NCBI GenBank assembly: GCA_017460175.1
Contig: JAFUBO010000003.1
Coordinates: 17,150 to 81,149 of the forward strand
Direction: 5' to 3'
From: Bacilli bacterium
GTDB taxonomy: Bacteria > Bacillota_I > Bacilli_A > RF39 > UBA660
DNA: 64,000 nucleotides
The position numbers and the translations under genes were made by a program. The notes under the pieces are model-generated. The model was not told the origin of the DNA and did no database searches. It worked only from the letters and a program-made list of their open reading frames with translations. Below, piece after piece: positions 9,541 through 60,621 of the stretch; the first letter of the stretch is position 1, and every line of letters begins with the position of its first letter.

Positions 9541-10124
9541 AAAAAGCATCTTTTATTAAAAGACTTTGTGCATATGCAATAGATTTTTTAATAATATTAA
9601 TGGCTACTAGTATATTATCAATTCCATTTACTGATAGTGAAAAGGTTTTAGAAATACAAAAAGAGACTAATACTGTATTACAACAATATCAAGCTGGAGA
9701 AATTATGCCTAATGAATATTTATCAAGAGTTTCAGATGTTTATTATAGATTAGGTAGAGAAAGTGGAATTAATACTTTCATTGAGATAATATTAGGAATA
9801 TTATATTATGTAGTTTTCCAATTATATAATAAAGGACAAACTATTGGTAAGAAAATAATGGGTATTAAGATAGTATCTGATACTGGTGATTTAAGTATGA
9901 ATCAAATGATATTTAGAGCATTTATATCTAATACAATATTGTTAAATATTATTAATTTTGGATTTGTTACTTTTGCTGGTAGAATGGTATATACTGGCGT
10001 ATTATCGACATTCACTATGTTGCAATATGTTATTACATTTATTTCAATTCTATTAGCAACAACAACTGAAGGTAGAACTATTCACGATAGAATAGCACAT
10101 ACTAGAGTAGTAAGTATAAAATAG
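9525..10124 (+). CDS. RDD-family membrane protein
   Basis: 'RLCAYAIDFLIIL' RDD-type motif. Three or four TM segments. 199 aa. Confidence 0.4.
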   Translation: MAKELKKASFIKRLCAYAIDFLIILMATSILSIPFTDSEKVLEIQKETNTVLQQYQAGEIMPNEYLSRVSDVYYRLGRESGINTFIEIILGILYYVVFQLYNKGQTIGKKIMGIKIVSDTGDLSMNQMIFRAFISNTILLNIINFGFVTFAGRMVYTGVLSTFTMLQYVITFISILLATTTEGRTIHDRIAHTRVVSIK

Positions 10125-45508: not shown

Positions 45509-45887
45509 GGGGCTGACTTGGTTTCGACGGGAATAATAGAGCATAGATGGCAAGTCGAATGTCCACGTCACGGGCACAAAAAAATAAATGCTAAAAGTAT
45601 TAAAAACGTTGTAGCTAATATGTTTGGTACTCGCCAAGCTGTAGCTTTTGCCTAATAATAATATAAAGGCCAACACTTCTTATAATCTTACCTAGGGATT
45701 ATTAAGAGGTTCATTTTATAGGTTATATCTATTTATTGTCTAGTAAATAGAAAGAATATTTAGACTGGTATATCTACTTGGTCGTTAATTACTTGGTAGG
45801 TATATAAGAACAATTAGTTAACTAAACTTGTAGAGGTTTATGTAGCTTTATTTTCGGACAGGAGTTCAATTCTCCTCAGCTCCACCA
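45509..45887 (+). ncRNA. ssrA: tmRNA (ssrA)
   Basis: 5' 'ggggctgacttggtttcgacggg'. 3' tRNA-like end 'ggacaggagttcaattctcctcagctccacca'. Internal tag ORF '...AKSIKNVVANMFGTRQAVAFA**' (gct aaa agt ... gcc taa taa). Directly downstream of smpB. Confidence 0.8.
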
Positions 45888-45900
45888 TAATGAAATTATT

Positions 45901-45925
45901 CGAACTAAGTTAGTTCGTTTTTTTA
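45901..45925 (+). terminator. intrinsic terminator after ssrA
   Basis: 'cgaactaa-g-ttagttcg' followed by T7. Confidence 0.6.
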
Positions 45926-45960
45926 TTTTATGGTATTATATATATGAATGGAGGAATATA

Positions 45961-46770
45961 ATGATTACTACAAAGAAAGATACCCAAATAGCTTTAGAAT
46001 TTTTAAATGGTAATCATTCTAAATACATTGGAGATAATTATAATTATATTTATAATTCTACTAATGAAAATTTAGATTCATATTATAAATATTTTCCTAT
46101 TAAAGATAAAAATATTTTAACTATTGCGAGTAGTGGAGATCATATATTAGAAGCAATATTAAATAGTTCTAAAGAAATAGTATGTTTTGATAAGAATATT
46201 TTTTCGTTATATATGTCAAAGTTAAAAATAGAATCTTTAAAAGTATTAAATTACGATGAATTTATTAATTTTTTTTATTCATCAAATTTTTTTAATAAAA
46301 AAGATTATTCTAAAATAAGAGAATGTTTAGATGAAAATATTAAATATTTTTGGGATAAATTGTATATAAAAGGTAATTTAGAAAATAATATAGGTAGACT
46401 ATTTTTAACTAATAGTTATGAATACTATGGAATTTATTGTGATGAAGATAAATTTGGTAAAATTAAAGAAAATAGTAATATTCCTATTACTTATAAACAT
46501 ACTAATTTTTTTGATTTACATAAAGTATTAAAATCGAGTGATAAGTTTTCATCAATTTTTTTATCTAATATACCAGATTGGTTAGATACTAAGAGTAGAA
46601 ATATTTATTACTATAATTACATTAAAAATGTTTTATCAAAATATTTAGATGATGATGGTATGATTGCGATTTATGCAGGAGTACAAGGTTCCAGACAATT
46701 AGAATTAGAAGAAAAAAGTAGTCAAATTATAGATGCAAATGAAAAAACAAAAGTATATGTTTATAGATAA
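45961..46770 (+). CDS. hypothetical protein, DUF3419/BtaA-like SAM-binding fold (putative)
   Basis: 269 aa. 'ILTIASSGDHILEAILNSSKEIVCFDKNIFSLYMSKLKIESLKVLNYDEFINFF' resembles the DUF3419 motif block (SaGdN.L..L..p..v.avD.N..Q.aLLeLK..a...L.y.ef...F). Confidence 0.3.
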   Translation: MITTKKDTQIALEFLNGNHSKYIGDNYNYIYNSTNENLDSYYKYFPIKDKNILTIASSGDHILEAILNSSKEIVCFDKNIFSLYMSKLKIESLKVLNYDEFINFFYSSNFFNKKDYSKIRECLDENIKYFWDKLYIKGNLENNIGRLFLTNSYEYYGIYCDEDKFGKIKENSNIPITYKHTNFFDLHKVLKSSDKFSSIFLSNIPDWLDTKSRNIYYYNYIKNVLSKYLDDDGMIAIYAGVQGSRQLELEEKSSQIIDANEKTKVYVYR

Positions 46771-46802
46771 TAAAAAAATCTGCAAACTAGACAATTATAT
46801 TC

Positions 46803-46830
46803 TTGACAAAGAAAATAAATAAAGTATAAT
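46803..46830 (+). promoter_or_regulatory. consensus sigma-A promoter of TasA-like subunit gene
   Basis: TTGACA-16 nt-TATAAT, followed by very strong RBS 'aggaggagg' 8 nt before ATG 46855. Confidence 0.55.
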
Positions 46831-46854
46831 TTATAATAGGAGGAGGAAAGAAAG

Positions 46855-47451
46855 ATGAAAAACGAAAAACAAAAGAATATAGTGTTAGCTGTATTATTAG
46901 TAGCAGTTGTTACATTAACTATTGCTTATGCATTATTAAGTGCAACATTAACTATTAATGCACAAGCTACAGTTAAAGGAGCTAATTGGGATGTTCATTT
47001 CCAAGAAAAAAGTGATCAATCTGCAATCTGTGTAGCATCTTCAAAAACTGGAGCTGCAACAACTACTGCAGAAGTTAAAACACAACCAACTGTTAGTAAT
47101 ACAAGTTTTACTGGTTTAGCAGCTGATCTTAAATTACCTGGTGATAAAGTAGTTTGTACATGGCAAGTAACTAATGCAGGTTCAATCGATGCTAAATTAG
47201 CTACTTATACTGCACCAGCTTTAACTTACGCTGGAGATAGTGCTGACGTTACTAAAGTAACAGGTAAAATTAACACTACTTTAACTGTTGATGGTGCTAC
47301 ACCAGCAAATGGTGATGTATTACCAGCAACTACTGGTAACACTAAAGATGTAGTATTAACTATCGAATTTGATCCAAATGCTACAGAATTACCATCTCAA
47401 GATGTAACAGTAACAGTAGCAAGTGAAACATTTGTATACGAACAAAATTAA
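46855..47451 (+). CDS. TasA/camelysin (peptidase M73)-family secreted fibre-subunit-like protein with SipW-cognate-type signal peptide
   Basis: Signal peptide 'KNIVLAVLLVAVVTLTIAYALLSATLTINA'. Motifs 'SNTSFTGLAADL' (compare camelysin 'SNNTFAAGTLDL') and 'LKLPGDKVVCTWQVTNAGSIDAKL' (compare TasA 'LKPGDKLTKDFQFENNGSLAIKEV', CalY 'LKPGDSVKKEFLLQNSGSLTIKDV'). T/A/G/V-rich, translationally optimal codons. Confidence 0.5.
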   Translation: MKNEKQKNIVLAVLLVAVVTLTIAYALLSATLTINAQATVKGANWDVHFQEKSDQSAICVASSKTGAATTTAEVKTQPTVSNTSFTGLAADLKLPGDKVVCTWQVTNAGSIDAKLATYTAPALTYAGDSADVTKVTGKINTTLTVDGATPANGDVLPATTGNTKDVVLTIEFDPNATELPSQDVTVTVASETFVYEQN

Positions 47452-47470
47452 TTTAAAAAGAATATGTTAA

Positions 47471-47500
47471 TCCAGGATGCTTAGCATACTGGATTTTCTT
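47471..47500 (+). terminator. imperfect hairpin plus T-rich tract between subunit gene and peptidase gene (possible attenuator / partial terminator)
   Basis: 'ccaggatgcttagcatactgg' near-palindrome followed by 'attttctt'. Confidence 0.3.
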
Positions 47501-47518
47501 GGTAAAGGGAGTGAAAAA

Positions 47519-48646
47519 GTGAAAACTAGTCATAAAAAGGCACTAGCTATACTTATGTTTATAGCTTTAGTTAGTATTGTTAACTTTTTCTTTCCCTTTA
47601 TACTTGATAGTAATAGGCATTTAATATTACTTGGGTTAGTCCTTGTTATATTATATTTATTACTAGGTATTGATATTAAGGGAAAGTCTAATAATAGACT
47701 TATAATAAGAGATATTCTTATTTATATAACTTTTTATTACCTATTAATATATTTATTAGGATTATTAACAGGATTTGTAAGAACAATTTATAGTTATACA
47801 ATATCAAATCTAGTAATAAATATAATTCCAAGTATATTGACAATATTTGGAGTTGAGTTAATTCGTAATCAATTAATTAATAAAACTAATAAGAAAAAAA
47901 TTATAGTAGTATTATCTTGTATAGTATTTATATTATTTGAAATAAGTATTAATTTTCAATATTATAATCTTACTATAAAAGATGAAATATATTTATTTAT
48001 AGGATTACTTGTAGCTTCAAGTATATCTAAAAATATACTAATGACAGTAATAGCTATGAAAACAGATTATTTACCTGCGGTAGTATATAGGCTATTAATT
48101 GAAACATTAGATTTTGTAGTATTAATTCAACCTGATTTGGGTCCATATTTAAATTCAGTAGTAGCAATAATGTTACCAATATTAACTGCGATAATGCTTA
48201 TAAATATGGGCAAGAAAGTTAAAGATACACCTGAGAAAGTAAAGAAAGGTAGTAAATTTTATATAGTTTTAGTTATTATTTTATCTATATTAGTTTTACT
48301 TAATTCAGGATTGTTAAAATTTCAAACTTTAGTAATAGGTTCACAATCAATGCTTCCTATGATAGATAAAGGTGATGTGGTTTTGATTGAAAGATTAAAT
48401 AAAGAAGAGAAAGATAAAGTAAAATTAGGAGAAATTCTAGTATATAGATATGATAATAAGATAATTTGTCATAGGGTAGTTAAAGTATCAAAACGAGATA
48501 ATGGTACTTTCTATAAGACAAAAGGTGATAATAATGACCAAGATGATAAAATTGTTCTTTCTAGGAAAGAAGTTATGGGGAAGGTAATATATAGAATTAA
48601 ATATATTGGTCTACCAAGTGTATGGTTAAATGAATTATTTAATTAG
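47519..48646 (+). CDS. polytopic membrane domain fused to C-terminal SipW-type signal peptidase I domain
   Basis: Likely GTG start at 47519 after RBS 'agggag' (the ORF track's ATG 47477 lacks an RBS). About 280 aa with 8 or more TM segments, then 'LVIGSQSMLPMIDKGDVVLIERL' (Ser box), 'ICHRVVKV' (His), 'KTKGDNNDQDD' box. This is the same motif set as the SipW at 747-1352. Confidence 0.55.
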   Translation: MKTSHKKALAILMFIALVSIVNFFFPFILDSNRHLILLGLVLVILYLLLGIDIKGKSNNRLIIRDILIYITFYYLLIYLLGLLTGFVRTIYSYTISNLVINIIPSILTIFGVELIRNQLINKTNKKKIIVVLSCIVFILFEISINFQYYNLTIKDEIYLFIGLLVASSISKNILMTVIAMKTDYLPAVVYRLLIETLDFVVLIQPDLGPYLNSVVAIMLPILTAIMLINMGKKVKDTPEKVKKGSKFYIVLVIILSILVLLNSGLLKFQTLVIGSQSMLPMIDKGDVVLIERLNKEEKDKVKLGEILVYRYDNKIICHRVVKVSKRDNGTFYKTKGDNNDQDDKIVLSRKEVMGKVIYRIKYIGLPSVWLNELFN

Positions 48647-48658
48647 AGGTGATATAAA

Positions 48659-49663
48659 ATGAAATTGAAAAAGAAAGAGTTAATATTATTAATAGCAACT
48701 ATAGTATTTACAGTAGCAGGATTGGTGTTTTACTATGAATCTAAAAATATAGTAACTACATCGTTAATACCATATGATGAACAAGGAACAGCTAACTATA
48801 AAGTTCATTTAAGTGATAATACATATTATAATAAAGATTACTTAGATGAAGGAATGCAATATATATCTAGTATTATTGATTATGTTGATTTGGATTTTAG
48901 ATATATTGCTAATTACCAAGGTATAAAGAATTATAAGGTAGATAAAAATATAGTTGCTAATATAAAAATTACTGATTTAGATGATAATAATAAAGTAATT
49001 TATACAAAGACAGAGACATTAAAAGAAGAACATGCTGATTTAGATAAATTATCAATTAATGATTCTATAAAGATTGATTATGTTAAGTATAATGACTTAG
49101 TAAATGAAATAAAAAGTAAATATGCAATAAGTGCTAAATCTACTTTAAGTGTTTCATATAATATTATTTATTCTTCTGAAGAAGAAGGTTTAAGTACAGC
49201 TAAAAAGATGGTTGTAGATATACCTTTATCTGAGCAAATGATTAATATTACTAAGGAAAATATTGCTAGAAATAGTGATGTTTATGTTGGCAAATCTACA
49301 AATTCACCAATAAATGGTATTATGTCATTACTTATGATATTAATGTTTATATTTGCACTTGCTAGTTTAATATTCTTTATTATGAGAGTAAAAGATAGAA
49401 TTAGTAAAGAAAGTAAATATGATAGATTTATTAATAAAGTATTAAGAGAGTATGATTCTTATATTACTGAAACTAAAGAAGATAATTATATTACTGGAAA
49501 ATCTGTAATAGAAATAGGTAGTTTTAAGGAATTATTAGATGTAAGAAACAATATTGATAAGACTATTGTTTATACAAAAATTGATGATAATACAAGTAAA
49601 TTTCAAATTATTGATGAAGAAGTTTATGAGTATGTAGCTAAAAGAGAAGAAATGGATAAATAA
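48659..49663 (+). CDS. bitopic membrane protein (N-in signal anchor, about 190-aa extracytoplasmic domain, second TM, cytoplasmic tail)
   Basis: TM1 'LILLIATIVFTVAGLVFYY', TM2 'IMSLLMILMFIFALASLIFFIM'. Translationally coupled to the peptidase fusion. No known motif. Possible TapA-like accessory or anchor. Confidence 0.3.
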   Translation: MKLKKKELILLIATIVFTVAGLVFYYESKNIVTTSLIPYDEQGTANYKVHLSDNTYYNKDYLDEGMQYISSIIDYVDLDFRYIANYQGIKNYKVDKNIVANIKITDLDDNNKVIYTKTETLKEEHADLDKLSINDSIKIDYVKYNDLVNEIKSKYAISAKSTLSVSYNIIYSSEEEGLSTAKKMVVDIPLSEQMINITKENIARNSDVYVGKSTNSPINGIMSLLMILMFIFALASLIFFIMRVKDRISKESKYDRFINKVLREYDSYITETKEDNYITGKSVIEIGSFKELLDVRNNIDKTIVYTKIDDNTSKFQIIDEEVYEYVAKREEMDK

Positions 49664-49788
49664 TTCATTTCTTTTATTGATAATTATTAAAAATATAAAG
49701 ATAATCTTTATATTTTTATTATGTTTTAATACGTAATAAATTGGTTAGAATAATATTATAAATAAAATTAAAAAAAACAAGTAAAAAC

Positions 49789-49817
49789 ATTGAAAAAAAA
49801 GTCGAAATTTGGTATCA
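49789..49817 (+). promoter_or_regulatory. sigma-A promoter with extended -10 upstream of giant surface protein gene
   Basis: TTGAAA-17 nt-TGgTATCAT, followed by RBS 'gaaggaggtg' 7 nt before ATG 49857. Confidence 0.45.
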
Positions 49818-49856
49818 TTAATAATAGGGTAGTGTCATAGAAGGAGGTGCTAGAAA

Positions 49857-52800
49857 ATGCGTAAAAAAATATTGTTATTACTTAGCATGTTTTTAATTAT
49901 GATTACAACATATGCATATTCAGCACTATCAACTTCTTTGGCAATAACTTCGGAGGTAAATATTAGACCATTAGCTGATATAAGAGTTAATGGAATAGCA
50001 TTAGATAGTACTCATGATTCTACTGTTAAATATGAAAGTACTTATTCAAGAAGTATAATATCTAGTGGTTTTGTATTACCAAATGCAGGATCAAGCATTA
50101 GTTATAGAGTTCATATAGATAATACAGGTGATGTGGATTACTGTATTTATGGTATTTCTACAAATACTACTAGTACAGGTTTAAATGTAGATACAGGAAG
50201 TTATAACTTACAAGATATAATACCTGCTAAAAGTTCTTTAGATTTAATAATAACTTATACTACATCTAATCCAAGTAGTGAACCAATAAATGTAATGAAT
50301 CAATTTGATTTTAGAAAAGTATTCCATGTAAGTTATAACACTGGAACTTCTCAAACAATACCTGAACAAATTAAATACGAAAGAGTGGATTTAACTTTAA
50401 CAAATACAAAACCTACTAAGCCTGGTAATACATTTAGTAGATGGAATACTAAGAGTGATGGAACAGGAGTTAATTATAATAGCGGAGCTACTTATACAGT
50501 GGATGAAGATGTAATATTATATGCACAATATACATTACAAACTTATAATATCACTTATGTGCTTGATGGTGGAACTAATAGTTCTAATAACCCAAGTACT
50601 TATACAACAAATTCAAATGATATTATATTAGATGATGCTAGTAAGACAGGATATGATTTTCAAGGATGGACTGGTAATGGTACTACGACACCAACAAAAA
50701 ATTTAGTATTACCAACTGGTTCTACAGGAGATAAGACATTTACTGCACACTTTAGTGATGTTACAGATCCAACAGTTACTGTAAAAGATCAAACAGGTAC
50801 TATAGATTATTTAACAACTGCTTATAATGTAGATGCAGCATGGGATGCTACTAGTGCAACTCCTACTGTATATATTAATGCAGAAGATACAGGTAGTGGT
50901 GTTAAGAAAATAGAATATGTATATAGTAATAGCACTACAGTACCTACAACTGGATGGACTGAAACAACTAATGGAGCTTTAAGTCAAGTAAAAGAACGTG
51001 GTAGTTATTATTTACATGTAAGAGTAACAGATAATGAAGATAATGTAACTACAGTAACAACTAAACCAATAACAGTAAGATTTAGAGTAGCTTATTATGA
51101 CGATTATAGTAAGAGTACAACTATATCAGAAAATCAATATTATACAGGAACAGCACTAACTTCTAGAACACCAACAGCAGTTACTGGTTATACATTTGAT
51201 GGTTGGTATAGTGATACAGCATTAACTCATAAAGTTGTTAATGCCAACACAAGTTATACACCAACTGCTTCAACAAAATTATATGGTAAATGGACATCTA
51301 CAAATTACACAATAAGTTATGCAATGAATAATGGACAAAATAATGAAAATAATCCAACAAATTATAATAGTGAAAGTGAAGCAATAACATTACAAGCACC
51401 AACTAAGACATTGATATTTAAAGGAAATTATAATGCAACAAGTGGAGCAAATGCTTCAAGCGGTAGTGGTGTAGCTATTGGATCTAATACAACAGCAAAT
51501 CAAACATTTACAGGTTGGACAGGAAGCAATGGAAATACTCCACAAACTACTGTAACAATACCAGCAGGTTCAACTGGAGATAAAGAATATACAGCACATT
51601 GGAGTGCAGTTGCACCTAATAAGTTACCAAAGGTAGAGAGAACAGGATATAGATGTGGATGGAATACAAGTAATAGTGGAACAACAATAGAGTATGCAAG
51701 TGAAGCTACAAATTATCCAACAAGTGCAATAAGTGAAGGTCAATCATCAACAGTTAATTTATATGCGGTATGTATACCAAACACATATAATATTTCATAT
51801 ACAATGAATGGTGGAACTAATCCAAGTACAAAACCAACAACTGCAACATATGATAGTGATGTTAATATAAGTAATCCAACAAAGATATTTACAGTTAATT
51901 TAGATGCAAATAATCAAGAGGCTGATATTAAAATTCAAGGTGGATATGATGTAATAAGTGTAAGTCAATCACAAACATTTGCAGGATGGAGTAGTACTAC
52001 AATAGGAAGTAATGCTAAGAGTGGTACAAGTACTAAACCAAGTGGAGCTTGGGATGGTAGTGCTACTACTAATAGTCATTTTATGAATTTAGTAGAATCT
52101 GGAACAGTAACAATGCTAGCAAACTGGACACCAGTAGATATTACTTTACCAAATGTTACTAAGACAGGATATTCATGTAAATTTAATACAAGTTCTAATG
52201 GAACAGGTACAGATTATGCAAGTGGAGCAACATATTCACCAAGTGCTACAGCAAATAGTGATACATTATATGCAATTTGTAGTCCAAATTCTTATACAGT
52301 AACTGCAAATGCAAATGGTGGAGATATACCTTCTACATCAGGTTGGACAGGAACAGGTGGAAGTTCTACTAAGTCAATAGTATTTGATACAAATTACGGG
52401 ACACTTCCAACTCCGACTAAAACTAGTTATACATTTGATGGTTGGTATAGAAATATAGTAAAAGCAGTAGATTTTAAAGATGCTACAGGTATTAATTCCG
52501 ATACAGGTGAACCAATTCATGCATCAAATTATTTTGCAACACCTAACTTAGTACCTATAAAATCTGGAATTACATTATATTCTAATTTAGAAATATGTGG
52601 AATATATTCATATGATTCAAATGGTGACTTTATAAAGAGAGAATCTAATTATTCTACAACTCATTCAATTTCAGCTAATGCTGCTTATATAAGAATTGAA
52701 GTTAAAAAGCAAGAAGGAGATATGAATTATTACTTAAATAATTTAGTAATAAGTGAATATCAAAATGCAGCTGATATAACTGATATAAGTAGTCAATTAA

Positions 52801-55800
52801 CAAGTTCAACAGTTTTAAAAATAGCTGTTGATCATAGTATTTTTGCTAAGTGGAGTATTAATAATATATCAACACCAGCAATAAGTGGTGGAACTACTAA
52901 AATATATGGTTCAAGTGATACAACTTTAACTTGTTCAGAAAATACAAGCTATGGACAAGGTATAACTAAATATTATTCATTTGGTTACGCTACAACTAAT
53001 GATGGTACACCAAGTAATTGGACTGAACCATCTACTTCAAATACATTTACTGTTGCAGAAAATGAATATGTAGGACAAAGATGGTATTCATGTAGAGTAT
53101 ATGCAACTGATGGTGTACAAACTACTTCAATAGTAGCAAGTTCACCATCAGCAGATACAGAACTAACAATAAATAATGCAAAAATTGTTTATAATCCTAA
53201 TGATTGTGGAACAATAAGTGGAACAAATCCTGCTTATGTTAAGAAAGGATCAACTGGAGTATACACTGGTATAAGAAATACTACAGCAGGAACAATAGCA
53301 ACTGCAACTCAAAGCGGATATACATTTACAGGATGGTATGATGGAACAACAAAAGTAATTAATGCAGATGGAACGATAGTTCCAAGTGCAGGTAATTGGA
53401 CAGATTCTTCTAGAAATTGGTTAATTACTGAAGATAAAACATTAGCTGCTCATTGCAGCGGTAATTCATTTACTATTGATTATGCAATGAACAATGGTCA
53501 AAATAATGCAAGTAATCCAACAAATTATAATATTACTGATACACCTATAACTTTAGGTCAACCAACAAAGACATTAACATTTATTGGACATACTAATTCA
53601 ACTAGTGGTGCTTATGGTACTGGAGTAACTATTGGATCTAATACAACAGCAAATCAAACATTTACAGGTTGGACAGGAAGTAATGGAAACACTCCACAAA
53701 CTAGTGTTACAATTACTGAGGAAACAGCTGGTAATAAGAATTATACAGCTCACTGGAGTGCAGTAGCTCCTGATACATTACCAACAGTAACAAGAAAGGG
53801 TTATACTTGCGGATGGAGTACAAGTAATAGTGGAACTACTATTGAATATGCAAGTGGTGCTACAAATTATCCAACGTCTTTGATTACAGAAGATATGAGT
53901 GCTACAGTTAACTTATATGCTGTATGTACTCCAAATATCTATTCAATAACATTAGATAATCAAGGTGCTGATACACCAGGAACTACAAAAGTTTATTATC
54001 AATATAATCAAACAAAAACTATTGATGGTACTAAGTGTTATTATTATTTAGATAGAGAATTAACTCAGTGTTTAAGAGGTGGATATTATATTGATAAACC
54101 TGCAAAAACAGGAAATACATTTGGAGGATATTATTCAAAAGTAAATGGTGCAGGAACAAGATATGTTACAACTTCTGCTGGATTTACTAATAGTATTTAT
54201 CAAAAAGCTCCTATTGATATAGATAGTAGTTATACAGATACAGATAATATTCCTTTATATGCTAAATGGACTCCTTATGCGTATAATATTTCTTATACGT
54301 TGAATGGTGGAAATGATCCAAGTCCAAAACCAACAAAAGGAAATTATGGTAGTGATGTAGTTATTGGTAATCCAACAAAGACATTTACAATTAACATTAA
54401 TGCAAATAGTCAAGGTGCAACAATAAGTTCAAATACTGTTACAAAGTCAATAACATTTGCAGGATGGAATAGTACAACTATTTCTGATACAGCAAAAACT
54501 GGTACAAGTGCTGATCCAACTACAACATGGGATGGTAGTGCTACTACTAATACATACTTTAAAAATTTAAGAAATACAAATGGAGCAACTGCTACAATGA
54601 TTGCTAATTGGGCACCTACGGATATAACATTACCAACTATTGAAAAAACTGGTTATACATGTGGATTTGCTACAAGTAGTAGTGGATCAATAGCATATGA
54701 AAGTGGTGGTACATATACATCTACAAGTGCATCAAGTGTAACTTTATATGCAAAATGTACTAAGGAAAATTATACAATTACTTATAGTATGAATAATGGT
54801 ACAAATAATAGTAATCCAACTAGTTATAATGTTGAAAGTAGTGCTATTACATTAGCAGCACCAACTAAGACATTAACATTTGTAGGACATTCTAATTCAA
54901 CAAGTGGAGCTGAAGGAACTGCTGTATCTATTGGATCTAATACAACACAGGATCAAACATTTGCAGGTTGGACAGGAAGTAATGGAAATACTCCACAAAC
55001 TGCTGTAACAATAGCGACAGGTTCAACTGGAAATAAAGAATATACTGCTCACTGGACAGGAGTAGCGGCAACACTTCCTACTGTAACTAAAAAAGGATAT
55101 ACATGTGGATGGAGTACAAGTAGTAGTGGAACTACTATCGAATATGAAAGCGGTGGAACATTCCCAGTAAGTGCTATTACTGAGGATATGTCTACTACAG
55201 TAAATTTATATGCTGTATGTACAAGAAATAAGATAAAATTAACATTAGATCATGATGGTGGTACATCATCAACACAATACATGTGGTATTATTATGGTAT
55301 TAATACATTCTATTCAGATGAGACATGTACAAATATAATAACTTCTGTACCAGTACCAATTAAAACAGGTTATTCATTCTCTAGGTATGTAGCTGATGGT
55401 ACTAGTGGTGGATCTTCAGGAGAACGTTATATTTATAGTGATGGTACTTTTGCATCCGATTTATCTAGTGATATATGGAAGGATGCGACATTAACTGCAG
55501 AATGGAGTGCTAGATCTTATAGTATTTCATACACAATGAATGGTGGAGTTAATCCAGATCCTAGACCAACTAGTGCTACATATGATAATGCTGTAGAAAT
55601 TGGTACAACAGCACAAACAACAAAAACATTTACAGTTAATATTAATGCAAATAGCCAAGGAGCAACATTAAGTGATACTAGTTCAAGTGCAGCATTAACA
55701 TTTACAGGATGGAATAGTTCTACACTTGGTTCTACTGCATTAACTAGTAGTGATGGAACTACATATACAGCTTGGGATGGTACTTTAACGACAAATAAAT

Positions 55801-57626
55801 ACTTTAAGAATTTAAGAGAATCTGGAACAGCAACATTGATTGCTAACTGGACAGGTTCTGTACCATTACCAACTATTGAAAAAACTGGATATGTATGTAA
55901 ATTTAATACAAATTCACATGGTACTGGAACTGATTATGAAAGTGGAGGAATTTATACTCCAACTAATGGAACAGCTACAAGTACTACATTGTATGCTATT
56001 TGTAGTAAAGATGTTTATACAATTAGTTATGCAATGAATAATGGACAAAATAATCCTAATAATCCAACAACTTATAGTGTTGATGATAGTGATATTACAT
56101 TACAAGCACCAACTAAAACACTAATATTTAAAGGAAACTATAATGCAACAAGTGGGGCCAATGGTACATCTACTTATATAAACAGTATAGGTACTGATAC
56201 AACAGCAGATCAAACATTTGCTGGATGGACAGGAAGTAATGGAAATACTCCACAAACTAGTGTTACAATACTAACAGGTTCAACTGGAAATAAAGAATAT
56301 ACAGCACACTGGACAGGAGTAGCTGGAACAGTACCAACAATAACTCCAAAGACTAATTATATTTGTGGATGGAGTACAAGTAATAGTGGAACTACAATTG
56401 AGATAGCAAGTGGTGGAAGTTATGATGTTAGTAGAATAACTGAAGACATGAGTTCAACAGTTAACTTATATGCCGTATGTAGAAAAAAAGCATATAGTAT
56501 TAAATTTAATGCTAACGGTGGAACTGGAACTATGACAAATCAATCAATGACATTTGGAACTGTTGCTACATTAAAACAAAATGCATTCACAAGGTCAGGT
56601 TATGAATTTGTAGGATGGACTCGTAATAGTGATGGTACTGGAGTTATTTACACTGATTTTAATGGTAGAGCAGCAGCTTATTATGATCAAGAACAAATAA
56701 TGAGGGATTTGACTGAAACAGATGGTGATATAGTTAACTTATATGCACAGTGGAGAAAAACTAGTGGAGAAATTATATATAATGCTAATGGTGGAGCAGG
56801 AACAATGGCAAATCAAACAATCCCATTAGATGGATCATCTATTAATTTAACAGGAAATGCTTATTCTACTTCTCCAGGATATATATTTAATAAATGGAAC
56901 ACTAAAAGTGATGGAACAGGTTACAGTTATTCTAACGGTGCTTCTATGACAATTATGCCTAATATGTTTATAAATACTTCTAATCCATCATTACCAACTT
57001 CTACAATTTCTTATGCTTTAGCTGGTCAATGGGGTAAAACTTCAGATGAGCTTACTCCGTCATTAATATCAGTAAATAATAGCGGATTGCCTGTTAATAA
57101 AGCTTTTGTAATACCTCAAAATACAACTTCTAAACCATATTATTTATACTTAAATTATATGCTTACAGAAGTTGAGGAATATTATATTATAAGTATATAT
57201 GCGAAAGGTTCTGGTAATTTAATAATTAAAGCTGAAGCAGAGGGAAGTAGTACTAATGGTAAAACAAGTAGTTTTACATTGACAAATGATTGGCAAAGGT
57301 ATGAAATGAAGATTTATCCTACAAGGAGTATTAGAACGTCGGATAATGATGATGATGTATATGTTAATATCCATAAACAATTTAATGTTTACTTTGGTAC
57401 AGAATCTGGAAATGGTGAAGTTCAAATAGCAGGAGCTAAAATGGAAAAAGGATCTACTCATGCAACTGAATATATTGATTCTAATGCACAAATAAACTTA
57501 TATGCTCAATGGAGTAGAGTAATGGCTGAAAATATTTATTATGAACCTAAGTATGCTCCAAGTACTTGCCATGATGTTCAATGTACATTAGATTATATAG
57601 ATAGTATACTTAATGGTAATAGTTAA
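49857..57626 (+). CDS. giant (2589 aa) secreted surface protein: TasA-like N-terminal domain, at least 20 Listeria-Bacteroides (Flg_new) repeats, C-terminal beta-sandwich (CBM-like) domain, no LPXTG
   Basis: Signal/donor-like N-terminus 'ILLLLSMFLIMITTYAYSALSTSLAITS'. 'VLPNAGSSISYRVHIDNTGDVDY' is a TasA-like motif. Recurrent 'Y.I.Y..NGG....(GY.F.GW).....LYA.W' repeat units (for example 'YSIKFNANGGTGTMTNQ...SGYEFVGWTRNSDGTG...VNLYAQW'). Confidence 0.7.
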   Translation: MRKKILLLLSMFLIMITTYAYSALSTSLAITSEVNIRPLADIRVNGIALDSTHDSTVKYESTYSRSIISSGFVLPNAGSSISYRVHIDNTGDVDYCIYGISTNTTSTGLNVDTGSYNLQDIIPAKSSLDLIITYTTSNPSSEPINVMNQFDFRKVFHVSYNTGTSQTIPEQIKYERVDLTLTNTKPTKPGNTFSRWNTKSDGTGVNYNSGATYTVDEDVILYAQYTLQTYNITYVLDGGTNSSNNPSTYTTNSNDIILDDASKTGYDFQGWTGNGTTTPTKNLVLPTGSTGDKTFTAHFSDVTDPTVTVKDQTGTIDYLTTAYNVDAAWDATSATPTVYINAEDTGSGVKKIEYVYSNSTTVPTTGWTETTNGALSQVKERGSYYLHVRVTDNEDNVTTVTTKPITVRFRVAYYDDYSKSTTISENQYYTGTALTSRTPTAVTGYTFDGWYSDTALTHKVVNANTSYTPTASTKLYGKWTSTNYTISYAMNNGQNNENNPTNYNSESEAITLQAPTKTLIFKGNYNATSGANASSGSGVAIGSNTTANQTFTGWTGSNGNTPQTTVTIPAGSTGDKEYTAHWSAVAPNKLPKVERTGYRCGWNTSNSGTTIEYASEATNYPTSAISEGQSSTVNLYAVCIPNTYNISYTMNGGTNPSTKPTTATYDSDVNISNPTKIFTVNLDANNQEADIKIQGGYDVISVSQSQTFAGWSSTTIGSNAKSGTSTKPSGAWDGSATTNSHFMNLVESGTVTMLANWTPVDITLPNVTKTGYSCKFNTSSNGTGTDYASGATYSPSATANSDTLYAICSPNSYTVTANANGGDIPSTSGWTGTGGSSTKSIVFDTNYGTLPTPTKTSYTFDGWYRNIVKAVDFKDATGINSDTGEPIHASNYFATPNLVPIKSGITLYSNLEICGIYSYDSNGDFIKRESNYSTTHSISANAAYIRIEVKKQEGDMNYYLNNLVISEYQNAADITDISSQLTSSTVLKIAVDHSIFAKWSINNISTPAISGGTTKIYGSSDTTLTCSENTSYGQGITKYYSFGYATTNDGTPSNWTEPSTSNTFTVAENEYVGQRWYSCRVYATDGVQTTSIVASSPSADTELTINNAKIVYNPNDCGTISGTNPAYVKKGSTGVYTGIRNTTAGTIATATQSGYTFTGWYDGTTKVINADGTIVPSAGNWTDSSRNWLITEDKTLAAHCSGNSFTIDYAMNNGQNNASNPTNYNITDTPITLGQPTKTLTFIGHTNSTSGAYGTGVTIGSNTTANQTFTGWTGSNGNTPQTSVTITEETAGNKNYTAHWSAVAPDTLPTVTRKGYTCGWSTSNSGTTIEYASGATNYPTSLITEDMSATVNLYAVCTPNIYSITLDNQGADTPGTTKVYYQYNQTKTIDGTKCYYYLDRELTQCLRGGYYIDKPAKTGNTFGGYYSKVNGAGTRYVTTSAGFTNSIYQKAPIDIDSSYTDTDNIPLYAKWTPYAYNISYTLNGGNDPSPKPTKGNYGSDVVIGNPTKTFTININANSQGATISSNTVTKSITFAGWNSTTISDTAKTGTSADPTTTWDGSATTNTYFKNLRNTNGATATMIANWAPTDITLPTIEKTGYTCGFATSSSGSIAYESGGTYTSTSASSVTLYAKCTKENYTITYSMNNGTNNSNPTSYNVESSAITLAAPTKTLTFVGHSNSTSGAEGTAVSIGSNTTQDQTFAGWTGSNGNTPQTAVTIATGSTGNKEYTAHWTGVAATLPTVTKKGYTCGWSTSSSGTTIEYESGGTFPVSAITEDMSTTVNLYAVCTRNKIKLTLDHDGGTSSTQYMWYYYGINTFYSDETCTNIITSVPVPIKTGYSFSRYVADGTSGGSSGERYIYSDGTFASDLSSDIWKDATLTAEWSARSYSISYTMNGGVNPDPRPTSATYDNAVEIGTTAQTTKTFTVNINANSQGATLSDTSSSAALTFTGWNSSTLGSTALTSSDGTTYTAWDGTLTTNKYFKNLRESGTATLIANWTGSVPLPTIEKTGYVCKFNTNSHGTGTDYESGGIYTPTNGTATSTTLYAICSKDVYTISYAMNNGQNNPNNPTTYSVDDSDITLQAPTKTLIFKGNYNATSGANGTSTYINSIGTDTTADQTFAGWTGSNGNTPQTSVTILTGSTGNKEYTAHWTGVAGTVPTITPKTNYICGWSTSNSGTTIEIASGGSYDVSRITEDMSSTVNLYAVCRKKAYSIKFNANGGTGTMTNQSMTFGTVATLKQNAFTRSGYEFVGWTRNSDGTGVIYTDFNGRAAAYYDQEQIMRDLTETDGDIVNLYAQWRKTSGEIIYNANGGAGTMANQTIPLDGSSINLTGNAYSTSPGYIFNKWNTKSDGTGYSYSNGASMTIMPNMFINTSNPSLPTSTISYALAGQWGKTSDELTPSLISVNNSGLPVNKAFVIPQNTTSKPYYLYLNYMLTEVEEYYIISIYAKGSGNLIIKAEAEGSSTNGKTSSFTLTNDWQRYEMKIYPTRSIRTSDNDDDVYVNIHKQFNVYFGTESGNGEVQIAGAKMEKGSTHATEYIDSNAQINLYAQWSRVMAENIYYEPKYAPSTCHDVQCTLDYIDSILNGNS
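51305..51780 (+). repeat. intragenic about 480-nt repeat, family A copy 1 (other copies at about 53470-53940, 54770-55220, 56015-56480)
   Basis: Long identical runs shared between copies, for example 'caaacatttacaggttggacaggaag.aatggaaa.actccacaaact' and 'agttatgcaatgaataatggacaaaataat'. Confidence 0.6.
51785..52280 (+). repeat. intragenic about 500-nt repeat, family B copy 1 (other copies at about 54285-54780 and 55515-56010)
   Basis: Encodes 'Y.ISYTMNGG.NP...PT...Y...V.IGNPTK.FT.N..AN.Q.A......FAGW.S.T......T.....W.G..TTN..F.NL......T...ANW.P.DITLP...KTGY.C.F.T...G'. Shared DNA strings between copies. Confidence 0.55.
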
Positions 57627-57645
57627 TCTATATGAATAAGATATA

Positions 57646-57674
57646 AAAACAGCATAATATATGCTGTTTTTATT
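57646..57674 (+). terminator. intrinsic terminator of giant gene
   Basis: 'aaaacagcat-aatat-atgctgtttt' followed by 'tatt'. Confidence 0.55.
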
Positions 57675-57699
57675 GTGTTTGTGTTTTATTAATACAAAA

Positions 57700-57725
57700 T
57701 AAAATCAGTCTTGAGACTGATTTAT
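57700..57725 (-). terminator. intrinsic terminator for minus-strand paralog cluster
   Basis: 'aatcagtc-ttga-gactgatt', which is followed by a T-rich tract on the minus strand. Confidence 0.45.
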
Positions 57726-57749
57726 TATAGTTATTCATTTAATTTAATT

Positions 57750-58385
57750 TTATTTTATTTTCATTGCATATAAACGACCTGTTGTTCCAATTGCACTTCC
57801 ACTGTTTTGATAAGCACATAGATAAATTGTTCCACTAGTGTCTGCTATATCATATGGATAACTAGTAAATCCAATACGTGTATTTTGTCCGTTTACTGCA
57901 GGAACAATAGTATGAGCTGCTGCACTAAATTCAGTATCTGGACAAGAACTAGAATATGCTAGATATACTCTTCTATGACCTGTTGCGTTTGATGTAAAAT
58001 TCGCATTACCATTAATAATCCATCTACCTGGAGTTAATGTAATTTGAGCAATTCTAGTTTTAGTATCATTTGCTACTGAAACTTCATTTGGTTCTGCTGC
58101 TATACGTTCTCCTAGACTATTATATGCATTTACATAATTAATTATATCTTGTTGAAATTTAGTAGATACTTCAAGAGCATCTAACGCTGATTCTACTTCT
58201 TCAAATGGCAATTGAGAATTAGTATTATCATAACTAACCTTGTCACTATTAAAGTATATTGTAGCAGCGTATCCTATAGAAATGGAACCTATTATCATAC
58301 CTACAATGGAAAATAATATAGGTTGTATACTGTTACGTATAATTTCTTTTAATTTTATTTTCTTTTCATTATTTATTATTTTCAT
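57750..58385 (-). CDS. small secreted protein, paralog 1 of TasA-motif family (N-terminal signal anchor, C-terminal beta-rich domain ending GRLYAMKIK)
   Basis: 211 aa. 'IGSISIGYAATIYFNSDKVSYDNTNSQL' N-terminus, 'LTPGRWIINGNANFTSNATGHRRV' motif, 'YLCAYQNSG...GRLYAMKIK' C-terminus. Paralogous to the next two ORFs. Confidence 0.45.
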   Translation of the reverse strand: MKIINNEKKIKLKEIIRNSIQPILFSIVGMIIGSISIGYAATIYFNSDKVSYDNTNSQLPFEEVESALDALEVSTKFQQDIINYVNAYNSLGERIAAEPNEVSVANDTKTRIAQITLTPGRWIINGNANFTSNATGHRRVYLAYSSSCPDTEFSAAAHTIVPAVNGQNTRIGFTSYPYDIADTSGTIYLCAYQNSGSAIGTTGRLYAMKIK

Positions 58386-58393
58386 ATTATCAC

Positions 58394-59035
58394 CTATTTT
58401 ACATTAATTGCATATAAACGACCAAGAGTCGATAAAGCATTTGGACTAGTTTGATATCCACATAAATAATAAGTACTTGAAGCAGTAGAAACATAAGGTG
58501 CATTAAAAGAAAGATATGTATAGGTACCATTTACTGCGTTTTCTATAACAAACCACGAGTTACCAAGAATACCATCACAGTCACTATTTCTTGATATCCA
58601 TATTTCTCTATAACCTGTTGCGTTTGAATTGTATCTTGCAGCACCATTAATCATCCATTTACCTGCAGGTAGTGTAACACTGGCAAGTTGAGTAGCTGTA
58701 CCAGAAGGTACTGAAACAGCTGCTGGTTCAATAGATCTTAGTTGACCTTTAGGTGTATAAGCAGTTTCTAATGCAGCAGCATTATTCGTAATATCAACAT
58801 CATCACATAATTCATCTATTGCACTTTGTACATCAGTTGATGATAATGAACTATTAGTATTGTCATAGCCTACATTAATAGAATCATAATCATAAAGTGT
58901 AGCATATCCAACTGTAGTTGATCCTATTACTGCTCCTAAAATTCCTAATATCATTAGTGTTAAATTTCTTATTATAAAATTTTTTGATTTTTTTCTTTTC
59001 CATCTATTAATTTTATAATTTTTAAACATATTCAT
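58394..59035 (-). CDS. small secreted protein, paralog 2 (ends GRLYAINVK)
   Basis: 213 aa. 'VGYATLYDYDSINVGYDNTNSSLSSTDVQSAIDEL', 'LPAGKWMINGAARYNSNATGYREI', 'YLCGYQTSPN...GRLYAINVK'. Confidence 0.45.
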   Translation of the reverse strand: MNMFKNYKINRWKRKKSKNFIIRNLTLMILGILGAVIGSTTVGYATLYDYDSINVGYDNTNSSLSSTDVQSAIDELCDDVDITNNAAALETAYTPKGQLRSIEPAAVSVPSGTATQLASVTLPAGKWMINGAARYNSNATGYREIWISRNSDCDGILGNSWFVIENAVNGTYTYLSFNAPYVSTASSTYYLCGYQTSPNALSTLGRLYAINVK

Positions 59036-59054
59036 ATTATCACCTTTTTATAAT

Positions 59055-59576
59055 TTATTTTATTCTTATAGCATACATACGACCACCAGTTTCTAAAGTT
59101 GTTCCACTGTTTTGAAAACCACATAAATAATATGTTGTGGTTGTTACAGGTGTTTGGAAACCAGAAAATGAAATATTTGTATCTGTTAATGCAGCATTAC
59201 TATTTTTATAGAAAGCTGCTCCGTATGGTGAAGAACAAGTTGAATTACGCGATAGGAATATTTGTCTATAACCTGTTTGGTTGAATTCAAAATTTGCTGC
59301 TCCTTCAATAAACCATGTTCCACTTGGAACTTCAATACTCGCAAGTTTAGTAGATGTATTAGAAGATAATGAAATTGGATCTGCTAAATTACGTACCATA
59401 TCTCCAAAGTCATTATCATAATGATCTTTATAAGTATTATAAATAACAACATCTTCTCCATGATTCTCAATGAAACAATTACTAGATGAAGCACTATAAC
59501 CTAATCTTAATGCTCCGCCTATTATTGTGCATATTAATACAACAATTATATATTTTATATTTTTCTTAAATTTCAT
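59055..59576 (-). CDS. small secreted protein, paralog 3 (ends GRMYAIRIK)
   Basis: 173 aa. 'VPSGTWFIEGAANFEFNQTGYRQI', 'YYLCGFQNSG...GRMYAIRIK'. Shorter N-terminal region. Confidence 0.45.
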   Translation of the reverse strand: MKFKKNIKYIIVVLICTIIGGALRLGYSASSSNCFIENHGEDVVIYNTYKDHYDNDFGDMVRNLADPISLSSNTSTKLASIEVPSGTWFIEGAANFEFNQTGYRQIFLSRNSTCSSPYGAAFYKNSNAALTDTNISFSGFQTPVTTTTYYLCGFQNSGTTLETGGRMYAIRIK

Positions 59577-59793
59577 ATAATCACCTATATTATTTTACTA
59601 TTATAATTATATAATTTTTTTTGTTAAATTTCAATATTTTACTATATATTATTTAAATAGTTTTTTTTATTTTAAGTTACTATTTATGAATTATCTATAC
59701 ATAAATATTAATTTAAATAAGTTATTTTTTTCTATAATTATTATTTTCGTTGGAATAAGTAGTTTTGTTTGATAAAATATTGGTGGTGATATT

Positions 59794-60621
59794 ATGGATA
59801 AATATAAGGAAATAGAGAGAAGTATAATAAAGAAGTATCGTAAAGATATATGGAGTAAATTTGTAAAAGCGGTTATTGATTATGAACTTATTAATGAAAA
59901 TGATAAGATTATGGTTTGTATTAGTGGTGGAAAAGATTCTTTTTTATTAGCTAAATGTATGGAGGAGATTAAAAGACATGGTAAAGTTAATTTTGACTTA
60001 TGTTTTGTATGTATGAATCCTGGTTATAATGAAAGAAATAAGAATCTTATTTTGAAGAATGCTAAGAAGTTAAATATTGATTTGAAAATGTTTGATTCTG
60101 ATATATTTGATGTCGTTAGTAATGTTGAAAAAAGTCCATGTTATTTATGTGCTAGAATGCGAAGAGGTTGTTTATATAATAAAGCTCGTGAATTAGGTTG
60201 TAATAAAATAGCTCTTGGTCATCACTTTGATGATGTTATTGAAACAACGCTATTATCTATGTTTTATGGAGCTGAAATTAAAACGATGATGCCAAAACTT
60301 TGGAGCGAGAATTTTGAAGGATTACAACTAATTAGACCATTATATTTAGTTAAAGAAAGTGATATTATTGCTTGGGCTAAGTTTAATGAGTTATCTTTTT
60401 TAAACTGTGCTTGTAGGTTTACTGAAGAGATATCTGAAAAGGATGATAATTTAAGTAAAAGATTGGAAATGAAAAAATTAATAAGTGAATTAAAAAAGAA
60501 TAATCCTAATATAGATTATAATATATTTAAGTCATTAGATAATATTAATATGAATTGTGTATTAGGATGGAAAGATGATAAGAAAAAACATACTTTTTTA
60601 GATAATTATGATAATAAGTAA
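59794..60621 (+). CDS. ttcA: PP-loop ATPase, tRNA 2-thiocytidine synthetase TtcA-like
   Basis: 'IMVCISGGKDS' PP-loop, 'CYLCARMRRG' and 'CACRF' cysteine motifs. 275 aa. Confidence 0.6.
   Translation: MDKYKEIERSIIKKYRKDIWSKFVKAVIDYELINENDKIMVCISGGKDSFLLAKCMEEIKRHGKVNFDLCFVCMNPGYNERNKNLILKNAKKLNIDLKMFDSDIFDVVSNVEKSPCYLCARMRRGCLYNKARELGCNKIALGHHFDDVIETTLLSMFYGAEIKTMMPKLWSENFEGLQLIRPLYLVKESDIIAWAKFNELSFLNCACRFTEEISEKDDNLSKRLEMKKLISELKKNNPNIDYNIFKSLDNINMNCVLGWKDDKKKHTFLDNYDNK

Follow-up and report, generated by a model that had tools for sequence, protein, structure and literature searches.

Biofilms of Gram-positive bacteria and of archaea have TasA-type fibres as a main protein scaffold. We analysed a putative operon for such a fibre in a 64,000-nucleotide stretch of DNA (the window; contig JAFUBO010000003.1, positions 17,150 to 81,149 of the forward strand) from the metagenome-assembled genome (MAG) of an uncultured, low-GC (about 25%) Bacilli bacterium. 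Closest to it among described systems are the AbpX-type loci, which occur in Bacillota, Chloroflexota and archaea and encode a dedicated type I signal peptidase (SPase I) with about ten transmembrane (TM) segments, a DUF5305 'accessory' protein, minor subunits and variable tip proteins (bioRxiv 10.64898/2026.01.04.697558). The Tafi system (haloarchaeal Tat-fimbriae) consists of the subunits TafA, TafC and TafE, the peptidase TafD and the DUF5305 protein TafG (PMC11821415, PMC12337348); experiments in Haloarcula showed that neither the processing of TafA nor the formation of fibres can do without TafD, whose gene cluster includes that for TafG (PMC11821415). Donor-strand exchange is described for TasA (PMC9674648), and the window fibre would be expected to assemble likewise. 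In Clostridium perfringens, an anaerobic Firmicute, the sipW-bsaA operon joins a SipW-type peptidase gene to a TasA-like polymerising matrix protein (PMC7395162).

Positions 46803-57626 probably make up a single operon, which would encode a chaperone-free surface fibre of the TasA superfamily and has its closest counterparts in the AbpX-type loci (Table 1). Judged by its sequences, it belongs, among the fibre systems of this superfamily, to the AbpX-type branch, which was described recently, and falls in a subfamily without a curated model. With Pyrodictium abyssi AbpX and its homologues the operon shares a polytopic SPase I gene adjoining a DUF5305 gene, extra subunit-like genes, a 'tip' protein whose C-terminal part varies, and hosts in Bacillota and Chloroflexota; AbpX is also the best Protein Data Bank (PDB) match of the window subunit profile. 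It differs in that its tip-position protein is a giant of 2,589 amino acids (aa) built of Flg_new repeats, and in that 9 TM segments were counted in its peptidase by crude hydropathy, against 10. With Tafi it shares the combination of subunits, multi-TM SPase I, DUF5305 protein and putative adhesin. Unlike Tafi subunits, which use Tat signals, the window subunit has no twin-arginine motif; TafD has 4 TM segments and an N-terminal catalytic domain, whereas the window peptidase has 9 and a C-terminal one; and the Tafi host is archaeal, the window host bacterial. As in the Bacillus subtilis tapA-sipW-tasA operon, an archaeal-type signal peptidase is encoded together with its presumed fibre-subunit substrates, and the window subunit has the PGD...N-G-s-ld motif and jelly-roll fold of TasA. 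SipW, however, is a small two-TM enzyme, whereas the window peptidase is fused to a 9-TM domain. To our knowledge there is no TapA homologue in the window operon and no DUF5305 gene in that of Bacillus, and we know of no DUF5305 protein, polytopic fusion or giant Flg_new partner reported for sipW-bsaA.

Species-representative genomes were scanned for the peptidase, of which at least 380 encode a relative, and 80 loci were fetched. Our own hidden Markov models (HMMs) for the subunit, the peptidase, the DUF5305 protein and three paralogs encoded beside the operon were searched against all open reading frames (ORFs) of the window and of 86 loci, referred to below by L numbers. Subunit, peptidase and DUF5305 genes occurred together, nearly always in that order, in 65 other loci as well as the window; 10 loci had peptidase and DUF5305 only, and the remainder were mostly short contigs. 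An earlier note on this DNA had described the locus as looking like a distinct, expanded variant of the TasA theme. That description is overstated, since the combination recurs in these 65 loci and the architecture has already been described for AbpX-type loci. Carriers of these loci are MAGs of Bacilli, 'Mollicutes/Tenericutes' and Erysipelotrichaceae, Clostridia (Sedimentibacter, Tissierellia, Oribacterium, Stomatobaculum, Anaeromonas and Sporosalibacterium) and one Chloroflexi genome; among uncultured low-GC genomes of Bacilli, Mollicutes-like bacteria and Clostridia, the AbpX-type version, with its subunits, polytopic signal peptidase and DUF5305 protein, is common. Subunit genes are present singly or as tandem arrays of up to seven (L068, L036). 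Sets of four to seven tandem paralogs lie 5' of the peptidase gene in L068 (2197-7282), L036 (4969-7676) and L015 (6827-9863), which suggests major and minor subunit sets or antigenic variation. Locus L001 (7147-9223) carries a SpaA-type pilin gene and a sortase gene directly upstream of the TasA-like cassette, two fibre systems side by side.

The subunit family is missed by all current Pfam and NCBIfam models and is therefore annotated as hypothetical: the 198-aa window subunit is 'hypothetical protein IJ097_00835' at NCBI, and only 39 homologues could be detected, none of them named. The family's conserved features are an N-terminal TM segment that closes with [AG]-[YF]-A, the strongly conserved stretch xLSATLTINxxATV, the block PGD…N-G-s-i-d-A-k-L and a Y-x-Q at the C-terminus. 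In the window protein the signal anchor ends at I-A-Y-A26, and the predicted mature N-terminus, LLSATLTINAQATV, is a putative donor strand; no part of the family is better conserved than the corresponding strand xLSxTLTINxxA, which directly follows the predicted cleavage site. A profile built from 33 homologues matched AbpX (9sj2) with an E-value of 7.4e-4 over 140 positions, while against TasA (5of1 and 8aur) it reached 0.2-0.3 only. An AlphaFold2 model of the subunit had a predicted local distance difference test score (pLDDT) of 87, with low confidence for the N-terminal segment in the monomer. Foldseek placed the TasA fibre 8aur first and the Tafi pilin 9p0a second among its matches; a second fold search returned the 0406 thread, Tafi (9p0a again second-best), AbpA and chaperone-usher pilins. 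In the model, the subunit shares the jelly-roll/Ig-like fold of the solved TasA-superfamily members. The AbpX profile match and the fold matches to TasA, Tafi, the 0406 thread and AbpA together bear out that this protein is related to the TasA superfamily.

Predicted cleavage rests on a motif that is nearly universal in the family. All 33 members close the hydrophobic segment with [AG][YF]A, and [AGST][YF][AS] is present in 115 of 120 subunit-HMM matches. By register, the mature subunit is predicted to start at L27 (LLSATL…), and the predicted mature start of all 33 members is of this LLSATLTI type (consensus xLSATLTIN), at an inferred site. In AbpX, an aromatic second residue and an acidic fourth one mediate Ca-dependent strand exchange (bioRxiv 10.64898/2026.01.04.697558). 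Lachnospiraceae relatives of the system read GTGYA before the site and YWTD after it. The window subunit begins L-L-S-A and lacks this signature, so that the Ca-bridged strand exchange of AbpX may not apply here.

Several observations weigh against assigning the locus to a polymerising TasA-type system. A Pfam search of the 198-aa subunit gave no match, PF12389 (Peptidase_M73) included, in which it departs from the TasA family proper; Peptidase_M73 matched 4 of the 33 family members weakly, with a best E-value of 0.0055. The subunit scored 16.2 bits on TIGR04089 (SipW-exported type; cut-off 60) and did not match TIGR04088, so curated models of TasA/camelysin and SipW substrates do not recognise it. 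The share of acidic residues in the mature subunit is below that described for AbpX homologues (10.5% Asp+Glu and about 15%, respectively); its pI is 4.4, beside a value of about 4. The aromatic-2/acidic-4 signature is absent from the predicted mature N-termini of all 33 members. Unlike AbpX-type loci, the block has no SLH or LPXTG anchor, no sortase and no c-di-GMP or two-component regulator. Cleavage after [AG]-Y-[AS] and polymerisation by donor-strand complementation are both predictions, the latter drawn from homology.

These points bear on an alternative in which the TasA-like proteins are processed by the dedicated peptidase but stay monomeric, as secreted or surface proteins of the camelysin kind or, like TasA in its first description, associated with spores; the giant would be a secreted adhesin using the same signal. 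The missed TasA thresholds, the missing AbpX signature and the reliance of polymerisation on homology would all fit, as would the organism's ability to form spores and the SleC and LysM genes close by. However, the best structural matches of the subunit are all filament-forming donor-strand subunits, and the most conserved part of its family is precisely the xLSxTLTINxxA segment, for which the monomer model is of low confidence. Relatives moreover carry up to 7 tandem subunit paralogs (L068, L036), which is typical of major and minor pilins, and a subunit-like module stands at the N-terminus of diverse adhesins. We consider the monomeric alternative unlikely and prefer a polymerising fibre.

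The second gene of the operon encodes the signal peptidase. Its start at GTG 47519 is supported by an AAGGGAG ribosome-binding site (RBS) and by homologues that start at the equivalent MKTSHKK; residue numbers here run from ATG 47477. The protein passed TIGR02228 (archaeal/endoplasmic reticulum-type SPase I) with 82.2 bits (cut-off 51.85) and scored 54.2 bits on the Bacillus SipW equivalog NF046067 (cut-off 190); by these models it is SipW-like in type, not a SipW ortholog. Its nearest solved relatives are SEC11A/C (E ~1e-14). Of its 9 predicted TM segments (crude hydropathy), the last, at residues 262-280, directly precedes the C-terminal catalytic domain, as expected from the proposed fusion of a SipW-type peptidase domain to a large membrane domain. 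In an alignment of 82 near-full-length relatives, one per species, S291, M292, H332, R333, TKGDNN348-353 (including Asp351) and D357 of the catalytic domain were 100% conserved. The S26 catalytic residues, whose loss would have spoken against a peptidase, are thus retained and invariant. Catalysis is predicted to be of the archaeal Ser/His/Asp type (Ser/His, not Ser/Lys, with a GDNN box).

Fusion of the polytopic domain to SPase I is kept in all 82 species, and within the membrane domain R130 and P219 are conserved in 100%, E127 in 97% and N115 in 95% of them; the E-x-x-R pair lies at the end of TM4. Conservation at this level suggests a function beyond anchoring, and the membrane domain found no sequence match in Pfam or the PDB. 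The window also encodes a conventional 201-aa signal peptidase I at 747-1352, presumably the housekeeping enzyme, which makes the fused peptidase of the operon an extra, dedicated copy. It is conceivable, if improbable, that the 9-TM domain is the assembly platform of a fibre built without chaperone or usher, holding the cleaved subunit and passing its N-terminal strand to the growing fibre, with the giant loaded first as tip. The same machine might then process the products of the three neighbouring paralogs as well, the whole block being a combined 'adhesion island' in uncultured gut- or rumen-type Bacilli. The near-invariant N115, E127, R130 and P219 and the common G-Y-[AS] site of the paralogs are what this idea builds on. 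The invariant residues of the membrane domain are targets for probing chaperone-free fibre assembly.

The gene that follows was described in the earlier note as encoding a bitopic membrane protein. Its product indeed has two TM segments (residues 8-26 and 224-242), which flank an outside domain, and it is a DUF5305 protein (PF17231, 57.3 bits; cut-off 29). It is a putative accessory subunit of the peptidase, a role proposed for DUF5305 proteins in the Tafi and AbpX papers (PMC11821415; bioRxiv 10.64898/2026.01.04.697558).

The last and largest gene of the operon encodes the giant. Its residues 1-24 form a signal ending in Y-A-Y-S24, after which comes a donor-strand-like segment, ALSTSLAITSEV, and a TasA-like N-domain that extends to about residue 160. 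Between the strand and the N-x-G block, a profile of the mature N-domain from five such proteins aligned with the subunit family at 94.6% hhalign probability (E 6.9e-8); the single sequence of the giant alone gave 81%. Flg_new repeats scored 112 bits and are arranged as super-repeats, visible as repeat families in the DNA. The proposal of a giant Flg_new protein with a TasA-like N-domain is therefore upheld in both its parts. A CBM_4_9-like region near the C-terminus had an E-value of 0.009, under the cut-off. Counterparts in close relatives are 2,759 and 6,456 aa long. A word-index homologue search with the N-domain returned truncated fragments and one orphan homologue of 134 aa (P0196; L089 10001-10405), which lies beside genes for a SpoIVB-type peptidase (S55) and sporulation sigma factors; within 10 kb of it no peptidase or DUF5305 gene was called. 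Searches of PHROGs and PDB profiles with the N-domain, the subunit or the DUF5305 protein returned nothing.

The product of the gene at the giant's position varies between genomes. In 28 of 62 readable loci, the gene after DUF5305 encodes the same signal and strand signature or matches the subunit HMM, and its C-terminal modules vary (DUF285/BspA-type leucine-rich repeats (LRR), glycine-rich sequence with a head-fibre domain, fn3, Flg_new). Since the giant shares the strand and the TasA-like N-domain with the subunit, it would become part of the fibre, most likely at its tip or end, and we infer that it is a modular adhesin joining the fibre through its subunit-like module. The gene after DUF5305 often joins a subunit module to adhesin domains that can be exchanged for one another (Flg_new, BspA-type LRR, fn3, glycine-rich), and from this simple rule adhesins displayed on fibres can be predicted in organisms not yet cultivable. 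Tip-position proteins of about 790-840 aa in L014 (3608-5977) and L032 (12064-14583) had weak matches to Hint modules (E ~0.004, below threshold); some tip proteins might contain autoprocessing domains.

A working model of the system can be put as follows. A strong sigma-70-type promoter would drive the 198-aa subunit gene; the consensus promoter and good RBS noted for this gene were both recovered (12 of 12 promoter positions matched). The hairpin after the subunit gene probably passes only part of the transcripts into the assembly genes. Subunit and giant would be exported by their N-terminal signal anchors and cut by the dedicated peptidase after their common [AG]-Y-[AS] motif, presumably with the DUF5305 protein as accessory subunit. 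Cleavage would bare the amphipathic strand xLSxTLTINxxA, which would enter the open jelly-roll of the next subunit and so build the fibre by donor-strand complementation, a step proposed from the homology with TasA, AbpX, Tafi and the 0406 threads. The giant would most likely sit at the tip or end, displaying about 2,400 residues of Flg_new repeats and the CBM-like module for adhesion.

The hairpin region (47452-47510) folded at -15.2 kcal/mol (z = -3.0). The same hairpin is also present in L002 (10633-10657), and close relatives retain the stem although bases on each of its sides have changed. The counterpart in L006 was indistinguishable from shuffles (z = -0.8), and L007 has a different hairpin and U-run in the same place (~9949-9974). 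The hairpin at 47469-47495 may be an attenuator that sets the excess of subunit over assembly proteins.

Table 1. Features of the putative fibre operon and of its surroundings (window coordinates).
Feature	Position	Strand	Remarks
tmRNA (ssrA)	45509..45887	+	ARAGORN; left landmark, outside fibre system
DUF3419-like ORF, 269 aa	45961..46770	+	Pfam DUF3419, 62 bits; between ssrA and cassette, outside fibre system
Sigma-70-type promoter match TTGACA-16-TATAAT, 12/12	46803..46830	+	Consensus match only; function inferred
RBS AGGAGGAGG	46838-46846	+	8 nt ahead of subunit ATG at 46855
Putative major fibre subunit, 198 aa	46855..47451	+	TasA superfamily
Terminator-like hairpin, then UUUUCUU	47469..47495	+	Between subunit and peptidase genes
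Predicted dedicated signal peptidase I	47519..48646	+	Probable start GTG 47519; ORF (389 aa) also open from ATG 47477
DUF5305 bitopic membrane protein, 334 aa	48659..49663	+	Pfam PF17231
Predicted giant fibre-associated adhesin, 2,589 aa	49857..57626	+	TasA-like N-domain and Flg_new repeats
Two bidirectional terminator-like hairpins	57643-57673 and 57702-57723	both	Separate convergent transcription units
Three tandem knob paralogs, 211, 213 and 173 aa	57750..59576	-	TM, helical stalk and TNF/C1q-like knob; neighbours of fibre system
ttcA-like PP-loop ATPase	59794..60621	+	Right landmark, outside fibre system

All ORFs listed in the earlier note are present where it had placed them. Its proposal that the three convergent paralogs share a TasA-like block with the subunit is not supported. 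They are 31-39% identical to one another, and each consists of an N-terminal TM segment ending in G-Y-[AS], a stalk that is helical (coiled-coil) and, at the C-terminus, a TNF/C1q-like jelly-roll knob; aligned with the subunit family they reached 1.5% in hhalign, and they were rejected as TasA-like subunits for want of any profile or fold similarity to it. Structural likenesses of the knob are to Chlamydia Pgp3 (11.0), a TNF-like lectin (10.7), ExsFA (10.1), TNF ligands and C1q (about 9-10) and F-BclA (9.6). An exhaustive HMMER search found 2,060 relatives of the C-terminal domain of about 115 residues. The domain closes proteins of 110-5,300 aa. Many of these are tail fibres or siphovirus tail proteins (DUF859, phrog_372), the latter often containing Flg_new as well, and one relative lies on a phi29-like contig. 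The knob C-termini are homologous in sequence to DUF859/phrog_372 tail proteins. Compared with phage tail fibres, ExsFA, BclA-type tips and Pgp3, however, the window proteins are small host proteins (173-213 aa) with an N-terminal TM segment or signal, and they have no collagen-like or tail-attachment region.

Whether the knob proteins belong to the fibre system was weighed separately. In such a reading they would be further substrates of the dedicated peptidase and would stand as trimeric lectin-like surface proteins beside the fibre. Their genes adjoin the operon, and in all five exported proteins of the block the hydrophobic segment closes with [AG]-Y-[AS], as it does in no other window protein with an N-terminal TM segment; small homologues elsewhere also read [ST]-[YF]-A-A after the TM segment. 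Sites of this A-x-A-like kind with an aromatic residue at -2 would, however, suit the housekeeping SPase I at 747-1352 as well, and the wider motif occurs at a background of 14% among other ORFs with an N-terminal TM segment. The donor-strand segment is absent from all three knob proteins, their genes are transcribed convergently as a unit apart, which has a promoter-like site and terminators of its own, and the knob HMM matched in 0 of the 86 other loci, in which the region 3' of the giant gene was not visible. We hold membership to be unlikely: on present sequences, the three knob proteins are neighbours and not a conserved component of the fibre system.

Locus scans with the paralog alignment found no relative in genome contigs and none in viral contigs; a metagenome-contig scan with it found two short contigs only, one of them phage-like; and a word-index search with a paralog returned the protein itself and one weak match. 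Two of the paralogs (57750-59035) have, ahead of the stalk at residues ~45-75, a motif of about 30 residues, V-x-Y-D-N-T-N-S-x-L-x-x-x-x-V-Q-S-A-I-D-E-L, which the third (59055-59576) lacks. It is also found in the proteins P0043, P0045 and P0050, with up to 44 copies in very large proteins (P0043, 5,298 aa). A suspected sharing of this 'VQSAIDEL' motif with the giant's C-terminus (…HDVQCTLDYI…) was dropped (hhalign 0.2%).

The position of the block directly 3' of ssrA had been taken as a sign of horizontal acquisition through that gene, a claim that our results do not support. The block has a GC content of 24-33%, compared with 22-35% in the rest of the window, and its GC skew also falls within the backbone range; the compositional deviation that the island proposal called for is missing. 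As had been noted, no integrase is present among the block ORFs, nor is any other mobile-element gene, and the 3' end of ssrA is not repeated anywhere in the window. In the close relatives L002, L003 and L006, whose subunits are 49-71% identical to that of the window, the cassette also follows ssrA, so the interval comparison likewise goes against the proposal; in these genomes a PFL/PFL-activase pair sits between smpB and ssrA. Among more distant loci, a tmRNA lies near the cassette in 1 of 60. Taken together, the constant position in close relatives and its rarity in distant ones indicate that the cassette moved in evolution and is stable in this lineage; as far as loci that carry the cassette can show, a recent acquisition is unsupported.

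A stronger form of the proposal makes the 14-kb block a recently acquired island or decayed prophage at ssrA, with the giant and the knobs as leftovers of phage receptor binding. The block does lie directly 3' of the tmRNA gene, distant genomes do carry the cassette elsewhere, the genes between ssrA and the cassette differ among relatives (Bro-N in L006, for example), and siphovirus tail proteins (DUF859, phrog_372) contain both Flg_new and the knob domain, which is also found on the phi29-like contig. Yet the block has no other phage gene besides lacking an integrase and an ssrA repeat, its composition is that of the backbone, the relatives keep the cassette in place, and the giant begins with a Sec-type signal and a TasA-like domain rather than a phage tail N-terminus. 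We regard this origin as very unlikely and retain the reading of a fibre operon resident in its lineage.

The slot between ssrA and the cassette holds the DUF3419-like gene in the window (45961-46770), a Bro-N protein gene in L006 (8600-9415), and a 369-aa ORF with a DUF1292 gene in L002 (7645-9007). There is small-scale gene turnover beside ssrA despite a stable cassette.

The flanking landmarks were as previously described, with the tmRNA identified by ARAGORN and the ttcA-like protein by its PP-loop Pfam match. Upstream of ssrA lie rnr, a gene for a PGA_cap protein and then smpB, and a terminator-like hairpin (45901-45917) is found 3' of ssrA. The ttcA-like protein scored 67.8 bits on PF01171 and 215.7 bits on NF007972, under the cut-off of 272; LysM and SleC-like ORFs follow downstream. 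According to ARAGORN, the tag peptide of the window tmRNA is unusually long, with 21 residues (AKSIKNVVANMFGTRQAVAFA), and relatives carry AKKIKNVVATMFGGNQAVAFA.

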